Positions 21,311 through 21,476 of a stretch of 64,000 bases of DNA are shown piece by piece. The stretch is from positions 1,952,001-2,016,000 of the forward strand of contig OZ242041.1 in NCBI GenBank assembly GCA_965205215.1, written 5' to 3'. The notes below the pieces were generated by a model. That model saw only the letters and a list, made by a program, of their open reading frames with translations, made no database searches and was not told where the DNA came from. This DNA comes from Nitrosopumilus sp. (GTDB taxonomy: Archaea; Thermoproteota; Nitrososphaeria; Nitrososphaerales; Nitrosopumilaceae). Position numbers and translations under genes: made by a program. The first letter of the stretch is position 1; the number at the start of each line of letters is the position of its first letter.

Positions 21311-21476
21311 TTACAATGCCCATTGTAAGGCGGAATCTGGGGTTACATGCGGGTTTGACGTGGGCACCATAGGCGAAATCCCGCCTTATGGCGCGCAAAA
21401 GGCGGGCAGACCGCCTCGTAATACTTATATGTTTACTGCAAGAGTTCATAATCGTGCTTTACAATGGGCATTGTAA
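21311..21476. promoter_or_regulatory. Two inverted copies of an 18-bp near-palindrome flanking a 130-bp segment with a TATA-like box (candidate invertible promoter or paired operators)
   Basis: TTACAATGCCCATTGTAA (21311-21328) and TTACAATGGGCATTGTAA (21459-21476) are exact reverse complements. GTAATACTTATATG lies at about 21418-21431. Confidence 0.7.

Follow-up and report, generated by a model that had tools for sequence, protein, structure and literature searches.

Bacteria classically vary their surface by means of invertible promoters. In the E. coli fim switch the short promoter-bearing segment fimS, 314 bp in length, lies between 9-bp inverted repeats with non-palindromic flanking half-sites; the tyrosine recombinases FimB and FimE are encoded adjacent to it, IHF and Lrp are needed, and the target is a surface adhesion function into which transcription must cross the proximal repeat. 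Bacteroides polysaccharide and surface-protein promoters are also invertons, i.e., promoter segments between inverted repeats (approximately 150-230 bp) at several surface loci per genome; they are served by Mpi and related invertases, Mpi being a serine recombinase, and one repeat type can be present at several loci such that one enzyme could act in trans. At the level of the single site, loxP/Cre, FRT/Flp and dif/XerA have two inverted arms that flank a short overlap, the asymmetry of which sets the direction. A related geometry is also known from regulation by looping, where in the lac, gal and ara systems two dyad-symmetric operators, an integral number of helical turns apart, bracket a promoter.

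For the Archaea, Chanin et al. (bioRxiv 2023, PMC10028968) list 12 putative invertons based on 42 datasets (36 Euryarchaeota and 6 Crenarchaeota), i.e., intergenic chromosomal segments bounded by inverted repeats that are proposed to phase-vary. The sections of that preprint used here name no ammonia-oxidising archaea and give no mechanistic characterisation among these 12 calls, the full list of which may bear on the novelty of the present finding. In the sections used here of a review of archaeal tyrosine recombinases (PMC8371274), phase variation comes up only among the general roles of tyrosine recombinases, the archaeal inversions described are all large chromosomal events, and promoter inversion in Archaea is not mentioned; nor do the corresponding sections of a survey of integrated elements in Thaumarchaeota (PMC6563490) mention units of the kind described below. 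Our literature search for phase variation by inversion in Nitrosopumil- lineages gave no report, and that for an archaeal inverton with a tyrosine recombinase retrieved only unrelated work.

Here we describe a 166-bp unit, positions 21311-21476 of a 64,000-nucleotide stretch of archaeal DNA (the window), and discuss whether it belongs to a small family of recombinase-dependent invertible promoters for giant surface-protein operons, a reading to which we give an even chance. The unit resembles fim in that a short segment with promoter-like sequence is enclosed by inverted repeats next to a gene for a tyrosine recombinase-fold protein, in its predicted surface adhesion target, and in that transcription would have to cross the proximal repeat. 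It differs from fim in the length of the segment (130 bp), in having full palindromes of 18-24 bp with a central asymmetry, in being present at five loci, in that the promoter would be of the archaeal TBP/TFB type, and in that only the reference orientation is seen in contigs. With the Bacteroides systems it has in common several surface loci per genome and a repeat type present at more than one locus (loci B, C and D, see below, would need an enzyme acting in trans), whereas it differs from them in its archaeal host, in its targets, which are giant secreted proteins and not capsule operons, and in its candidate enzymes, which unlike Mpi are paralogues with a tyrosine-recombinase fold.

The source genome is a single contig of 2,098,239 bp with 60% GC. 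TBP and an archaeal AmoA are encoded and McrA was not found in the whole genome, and the host is therefore an ammonia-oxidising archaeon. Left of the unit, on the minus strand, the window carries an operon of giant genes of in total more than 9,000 aa. The first gene (15352-21186; ORF up to 1,985 aa) encodes six DUF285 stretches and PKD/Ig-like domains, the second ORF (4594-15345) is 3,583 aa, and the third (1-4491) comprises more than 1,497 aa before it runs off the edge of the window, being 3,401 aa in the genome. The likely start of the first gene is the ATG at 21186, which opens MMSVLAAVLIIGVGAAGAVLLVPAAETAEA, a signal-peptide-like sequence. Right of the unit, on the plus strand, the ORF of the recombinase P1 (21859-23469) begins 382 bp past the right site, in agreement with the distance of about 0.4 kb given in the original prediction, and no HTH gene was found between the unit and P1. 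ORFs without known identity and a HerA/VirB4-like ATPase are also present to the right. The GC content is 0.45-0.58 at 21250-21549 compared to 0.74-0.78 in both flanks, and the DNA that holds the two sites is the only AT-rich patch of the region.

The giant-gene-proximal site (21311-21328) reads TTACAATGCCCATTGTAA, that is TTACAATG-CC-CATTGTAA, with palindromic 8-bp arms and an asymmetric centre, and the distal site (21459-21476) reads TTACAATGGGCATTGTAA, that is TTACAATG-GG-CATTGTAA, the exact reverse complement of the former. They are 148 bp apart from start to start and enclose 130 bp (21329-21458), the candidate invertible element, with a GC content of 0.45-0.53 against 0.74-0.78 in the flanks. 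The positions of the two exact inverted 18-bp sites thus agree with those first predicted, as does the extension of the right one, which is part of a 24-bp palindrome, GCTTTACAATGGGCATTGTAAAGC, at 21456-21479. The left site was also thought to abut the first possible start of the operon; this holds for a TTG at 21309, but not for the likely start, the ATG at 21186, which lies 124 bp from the site. A search of the window for TTACAATGNNCATTGTAA allowing up to three mismatches recovered the two sites and nothing else, two matches were found in none of 100 dinucleotide shuffles of the window, and exact matches genome-wide are just these two, the next nearest sequences being 2-3 mismatches off. A pair that is exact, unique in the genome and far beyond chance was counted in favour of a switch.

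Within the segment, the predicted TATA-like stretch is present at 21418-21431 (GTAATACTTATATG) in an AT-rich patch, and the best match to a BRE/TATA profile covers 21419-21434, 25-40 bp inside the distal site. Both hairpins that had been noted were recovered: an imperfect one at 21366-21393 folds in the MFE structure of the minus-strand RNA, and the other, AGGCGG-GCAGA-CCGCCT at 21400-21416 with a 6-bp stem, is readable in the sequence, its stem being kept only in part at the homologous locus A. The fold of the putative leader RNA (221 nt) is not unusual (z = -1.0), and Rfam gave no match at the gathering threshold in the window and none at E values up to 1 in 21150-21900. Just outside the distal site, a motif conserved in the five-locus alignment (21477-21494) reads CATAGCCCTATTGTGGCT towards the giant gene, and its CTATTTTG-like core is common to all five loci.

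These loci were identified by searching the whole genome for exact inverted repeats with a minimum length of 14 bp and a distance of 40-400 bp, which gave 32 pairs. Six have AT-rich arms, and five of those have a start-to-start spacing of 147-151 bp, with their dyads 147, 148, 148, 148 and 149 bp apart. All five are located at the 5' end of a giant ORF or operon (ORFs of 2,000-5,200 aa): locus A (genome positions 61696/61847) between divergent giant operons, locus B (981722/981869) at the 5' end of a giant ORF, locus C (1109720/1109868) at the 5' end of a giant operon, locus D (1227653/1227803) between the P1 paralogue P4 and a 2,650-aa gene, and locus E (1973311/1973459), which is the unit of the window. 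In genome coordinates the units A to E span 61696-61862, 981722-981882, 1109720-1109881, 1227653-1227818 and 1973311-1973476. A sixth unit was found in a related genome, G002, between a 1,825-aa ORF and the gene for a recombinase with 56% identity; here CATAATGGCTATTATG is paired with its mirror at a dyad spacing of 167 bp, and the inverted-repeat scan of that whole genome gave no other unit.

When the genome was block-shuffled four times, each shuffle yielded 2-3 pairs, and in none of the four did a pair have a spacing of 145-152 bp. Moreover, the generic symmetric site pattern AYAAKRNNYMTTRT has 14 matches in the genome (two for the reversed control), and 10 of these are the five pairs. The motif is therefore not one that occurs singly at many promoters, the finding that according to the original prediction would have pointed to a transcription factor operator. 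A chance likeness between two AT-rich palindromes that have no function draws on nothing but the general abundance of AT-rich words in intergenic DNA; given none of 100 window shuffles and none of four genome shuffles against five real pairs, and sites that are conserved while the inner segments have diverged, we regard it as effectively refuted and its probability as negligible.

With the giant gene placed to the right, the five units align over their full length and for approximately 15-20 bp beyond the distal site, and the enclosed segment of locus E is homologous to those of the other four loci, with the giant gene on the same side in each case. Units A and E are clearly homologous (z = 25), and this homology extends about 20 bp beyond the repeats. 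The B, C and D units are nearly identical, and here it runs on for about 150 bp on the gene side and for 25-100 bp on the other side. Locus A aligns to D only with both giant genes on the same side (z = 5.1 versus 0.1), and the inner segment of G002 gave no significant alignment with those of the present genome (z ≤ 2.1). The sites are kept where the inner segments have diverged, and the six units do not differ in their orientation towards the giant gene, G002 having the same layout from TATA to site.

A short, AT-rich unit bounded by inverted repeats and present in five copies could also be a mobile or replicative relic, i.e., a MITE-like insertion, leftover att or arm sites of an integrated element with P1 as its integrase, or origin-like boxes round an AT-rich unwinding region; an integrase-family gene does adjoin it, and the HerA/VirB4-like ATPase and the ORFs of no known identity lie to its right. 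Against this, the homology between copies passes beyond the repeats (A versus E, and among B, C and D), no target-site duplication flanking the unit is visible at locus E, and every copy has the same position and orientation before giant genes. Direct repeats longer than 13 bp that link 21200-21900 to 23500-64000 were not found, and the 11-13-mers that do are GC-rich and at chance level. All told, we consider a relic improbable. Specifically, homology past the repeats, the lack of a duplication and the constant genic context argue against a MITE or another transposon with terminal inverted repeats, and the fact that the sites are inverted and 148 bp apart, with no direct repeat above 13 bp to the right, argues against the att sites of an integrated element. 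As to the third form, origin recognition boxes are not known to be dyad-symmetric as the present sites are.

The centres of the sites are informative with respect to how they might be used. The central 8 bp of the proximal site of locus E, ATGCCCAT, is the exact reverse complement of that of its distal partner, and the same relation holds between partners in six of six units although the sequence itself differs with the site type: ATGCCCAT in A and E, AGGATCAT in B, C and D, and ATGGCTAT in G002. When the sites were compared over 26 bp, informative positions backed the inverted rather than the direct relation in every unit, by 5:3, 6:2, 5:3, 5:1, 2:0 and 7:2. The asymmetric positions differ among the three site types; at least two concerted changes of both partners must therefore have taken place. 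The half-sites show the same kind of concordance within a locus: TACAATG is found in all four half-sites of E, and CATAATG in three of the four of A, the fourth being GATAATG with one change. Moreover, the full site type of locus E is found only there, beside P1; the type common to B, C and D adjoins the tandem P3/P4 genes at D; and the G002 type adjoins the recombinase of G002 itself. Site types and recombinases have diversified in parallel, which was counted for the switch.

Strand exchange by tyrosine recombinases needs identical overlap regions, which heteroduplex repair afterwards would homogenise, and the overlap of 6-8 bp may be mostly palindromic since a central asymmetry suffices. For this reason the 2-bp core, which had been put forward as a sign of a serine recombinase, is not compelling as such. 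Mirrored cores in six of six units across the types favour recombination sites, while a dimeric regulator gives no reason for them, and in sequence the two partners of a unit look like inverted crossover sites of a tyrosine recombinase, similar to simple sites of the lox, FRT and dif type. With an overlap of 6-8 bp, the arms would be 5-9 bp, compared to 11-13 bp in lox and dif.

The main alternative is that the sites are static paired operators, where a dimeric or tetrameric regulator loops 148 bp around a fixed promoter, with no inversion, and thereby represses or activates the giant operon and/or the recombinase gene; the binder could possibly be the adjacent recombinase-like protein, acting without catalysis. 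Each site is a near-perfect palindrome, as for a dimer, and dyad spacings of 147-149 and 167 bp correspond to approximately 14 and 16 helical turns, which would place both sites on the same face of the helix. However, the mirror-image asymmetric centres, present in six of six units with three core sequences, are not needed by a regulator, and in this respect the units differ from the lac, gal and ara looping operators; apart from that of the recombinase, no gene for a cognate regulator was found. The E site type is unique in the genome, so a regulator would serve a single locus. Furthermore, an HTH-type gene was not found beside B and C, and the absence of a transcription factor gene at these two loci was counted for the switch. 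Taken together with the evidence on the recombinase, the promoter and the orientation given below, we consider paired operators a possible explanation, to be taken seriously but with a probability clearly short of even.

P1 is a protein of 536 aa with a Q-rich C-terminal tail. It matches PF00589 in Pfam (31.9 bits, cut-off 27.1), and its AF2 model has a pLDDT of 83.7. A Foldseek search with the model gave XerA (5hxy, 4a8e), lambda Int (1z19) and Cre (3crx) at a probability of 1.00 and E values from 1e-6 to 1e-3, and as modelled P1 has the two-domain tyrosine-recombinase fold, core-binding and catalytic. A phmmer search of P1 against the PDB gave low-complexity matches only. P1 exceeds XerA in length by about 200 aa, having both an additional N-terminal region and a tail of low complexity; its HxxR and LGH motifs align with those of XerA, and the canonical first arginine is replaced. 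No XerA above the cut-off was found in the genome.

The tetrad of tyrosine recombinases is R...HxxR...Y, as set out in the sections used here of the review cited above (PMC8371274). Among 107 aligned homologues of P1, K272, H351 and R354 are invariant and H373, H377 and Y383 are at least 90% conserved, but at the position of the canonical first-arginine motif GLR has become GLD, with D229 in all 107. Two arginines near D229, R236 and R270, are conserved, and one or the other might replace the first catalytic arginine. The Pfam alignment omits the first 55 profile positions in 11 of 11 members scanned. Given the invariant Asp at the first arginine and the Pfam gap there, catalytic competence is only predicted; this counts against a switch, and the absence of the canonical first arginine from the recombinase family would be in keeping with a non-catalytic binder of paired operators. 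On the other hand, the (near) invariance of K, HxxR, H and Y in the 107 homologues argues for retained catalysis and so against such a binder, as does a relative (at L061) that adjoins a tRNA gene, like a working integrase.

P1 has four paralogues in the genome with 46-68% identity, and each of the five is encoded within 2.5 kb of an ORF of 2,000-3,100 aa. Recombinase paralogues adjoin three of the six units (E, D and G002), and within the genome a recombinase gene lies within 1 kb at two of the five unit loci. P2, P3 and P5 adjoin giant genes without such a unit, and the adjacency of recombinases and units may therefore in part reflect a common link to giant genes. The lack of a clear correlation, among giant genes, between a unit and an adjacent recombinase counts against a switch. 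Upstream of P2 there is a 14-bp pair of a different kind (83957/84152, 195 bp apart), which was set aside, and no inverted pair was found upstream of P3 and P5. The family comprises 310 proteins at E ≤1e-5 among 8,000 scored candidates and is matched in 40 of 151 genomes of the genus. Two homologues (P0003 and P0004) show 77% and 75% identity, and one homologue has the source name 'Nitrosopumilaceae archaeon'.

In relatives, the strict generic two-site pattern was found in none of 150 other genomes of the genus, a point against a switch, and TTACAATGNNCATTGTAA with at most one mismatch in 13 of the 150 compared to 10 for the reversed control, i.e., at chance level, with no exact match. The single-site generic pattern versus its control gave 7 versus 7 matches in G002, 3 versus 1 in G081 and 23 versus 14 in G117. 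DNA homology to the 751 bp around the unit was present in none of 40 relatives. A pair search allowing two mismatches at 49 loci around recombinase homologues (L025-L073) was noisy and recovered L055 only. Metagenomes were scanned with the two-site pattern of the A and E types; the sole match (L079) was rejected as unrelated, being a long perfect hairpin on a contig with eukaryote-like ORFs.

To describe the promoter signal, a BRE/TATA profile was built from 1,007 crude gene starts of the same genome. The resulting AAAnnnTTATA starts 35-40 nt ahead of the ATG, and most genes of the genome have their TATA approximately 30 nt before the ATG. At locus E, the plus strand, which leads to the recombinase, scores 11.9 bits against this profile, and the minus strand, which leads to the giant operon, 11.6 bits; the units in general score 11.6-14.3 bits, with about equal values for the two strands, so that the promoter could point either way, and this counts against a switch. 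Each unit has a TATA-like box; measured from the distal site it lies 25-45 bp inwards, and its distance to the proximal site is about 95 bp. The GC-rich stretch from the proximal site to the start codon contains no TATA, and no AT-rich DNA other than the enclosed segment is present upstream of the giant genes. A promoter that faces the giant gene would thus give a leader of about 210 nt at E and a longer one at B, C and D. Such a long leader is unusual in this genome, because TATA is usually about 30 nt before the ATG, and counts against a switch, although a leader that crosses the proximal repeat is normal for invertible promoters. With paired operators, the TATA-like box 25-40 bp from the distal site would have a ready explanation, since transcription from an outward promoter would start at this site, a classic repressor position.

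The orientation of the segment was followed in assembled contigs of sequencing runs. In one study of three runs, two contain the stretch, while the third gave no contig there. Both sites are bridged, in the reference orientation and without any difference, by a Logan contig of run X1 (covering 20300-22532, depth 35) and by one of run X2 (20320-21742, depth 21), and no strand-change joint at the sites was present in the assembled contigs of these two runs. Since contigs drop minor variants, this excludes only a balanced or otherwise substantial mixture of orientations, not a minority. The prediction of an archaeal promoter switch is strengthened with respect to its layout, which recurs at four more loci and in G002, and by the mirrored cores, but the inverted copy it implies did not appear in contigs. 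The single orientation of all six units also speaks against free switching, where mixed orientations are expected. One orientation in all units and in the contigs is trivial for a fixed promoter between operators, whereas a switch needs one dominant state. Consequently, the membership of the units in the inverton class is not established, both orientations having been sought only in contigs and one seen.

If the units are nevertheless invertible promoters, the 18-bp sites would each act as a simple core site for a tyrosine recombinase, with two inverted binding arms around an overlap of 6-8 bp and with the central asymmetry of the overlap giving the site its direction. The neighbouring recombinase, P1 at locus E, would bind the two sites, and synapsis followed by strand exchange would turn the 130-bp segment round. 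The sites of the unit are inverted, and inversion is the outcome for two such sites on a single molecule according to the sections used here of the above review (PMC8371274). Upstream of the operon, a TATA/BRE-like sequence is present in this segment only. In one orientation, which would be the ON state, the giant genes would be transcribed by way of the proximal site and the GC-rich leader, and in the other transcription would be directed away from these, at E towards the recombinase gene. Extended to the whole family, the reading becomes one of multi-locus phase variation, in which five 166-bp cassettes with three site classes would be acted on by paralogues of a recombinase with Asp for the first Arg and would thereby switch giant adhesin-like operons; this wider proposal is more tentative, and we would put it at somewhat less than an even chance. 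Locus A, located between two divergent giant operons, could possibly toggle between the two.

If the proposal is true, it would add the first described case of promoter inversion in Nitrososphaerota, and for Archaea as a whole the first system of this type with a defined mechanism, and it would provide a compact archaeal toolkit of recombinases and sites with three specificities. It would also mean that a recombinase family without the textbook first arginine is active. Finally, if the units flip, ammonia-oxidising archaea would bet-hedge over very costly cell-surface proteins, which would have a bearing on their attachment to particles or hosts and on the evasion of viruses.

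The genome that contains the window (G000; a single contig of 2,098,239 bp) encodes five paralogous proteins with a tyrosine recombinase fold, located at positions 84430-86007, 601720-603366, 1223141-1224733 and 1225329-1226786 of the contig and, for P1, at 21859-23469 of the window. All five have an ORF of 2,000-3,100 aa within 2.5 kb, and for three of them (P2, P3 and P5) the adjoining giant genes lack a switch unit, i.e., the mirrored site pair that represents a candidate invertible promoter.

At three of the five switch units, loci B, C and D, the site proximal to the giant gene is followed immediately downstream by a strong conserved inverted repeat, GGCGCACAAGG ... 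CCTTGTGCGCC (at approximately 981890-981950 for B, 1109890-1109950 for C and 1227825-1227885 for D). The repeat is positioned in the GC-rich putative leaders of the three giant genes and could form a leader hairpin. At locus C (1110060-1110690), a MRRRLAQTLCLA-like start region homologous to the giant-gene start at D precedes the long ORF, which begins at 1110690, by about 630 bp. The first giant gene of locus C may thus carry a frameshift or have a miscalled start.

Other repeats were also detected. Arrays of near-perfect palindromes of roughly 48 bp, composed of GTTACCCGGTAACAATCATAGAGC and its mirror and spaced by about 130-280 bp, are present at 625629-626195 and 1127960-1128364 of the same contig; these arrays constitute a repeat system different from the switch units. 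A 418-aa ORF is located about 1.2 kb from the second array, with a weak XerA-like N-terminal match at 1129569-1129991. In the related genome G002, approximately nine tandem GGCAGGTTTGGG-like units separate the switch unit from its recombinase gene (8800-8905 of locus L055, corresponding to about 138895-139000 of contig C1).

An integrated element or a defence island may occupy the region to the right of P1 (window 23864-37549). This region includes several ORFs without Pfam match, a HerA/VirB4/TraG-like ATPase (32440-34287) and a Schlafen AlbA_2 protein (36425-37549), and its GC content drops locally to 0.48-0.51. No att repeats were found for such an element when 21200-21900 was compared with 23500-64000 for direct repeats >13 bp. 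Further to the right, two ORFs that resemble each other, with lengths of about 580-600 aa and a common N-terminus (37701-39434 and 46160-47971, both on the minus strand), match the N-terminal half of the profile of the archaeal tyrosine recombinase XerA weakly (E about 2e-4), and together with P1 these are probably the three recombinases referred to in the original prediction. The window scan revealed no inverted-repeat pair near either ORF, and the archaeal XerA model gave no match at the curated cut-off in the whole G000 genome (best score 33 bits vs 220).

With respect to P1, the codons ahead of its GTG start (window 21844-21861) read G-P-Y-Y-E and match the N-termini of the paralogues, V/M-x-Y-Y-E-V-L-R. 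Since P1 has GGG where the paralogues start, and none of ATG, GTG and TTG occurs after the preceding stop codon (21811) and before 21859, the ancestral start seems to have been lost, with P1 now starting 4-5 residues later. The low-complexity C-terminal tails also differ among the paralogues, being Q/M-rich in P1 (window 23200-23469), His-rich in P4 and Gly/Asp-rich in P2 and P3; residues 452-507 form a long helix in the AF2 model of P1.

In the alignment of 107 P1 homologues (A3), the K, HxxR, H and Y residues are retained, and at the position where the motif has its first catalytic arginine (residue 229 in P1) every homologue carries aspartate (107/107; GLD in place of GLR). The first 55 positions of the Pfam profile are not aligned in any of the 11 family members scanned. 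The P1 recombinase family may have an unusual active site.
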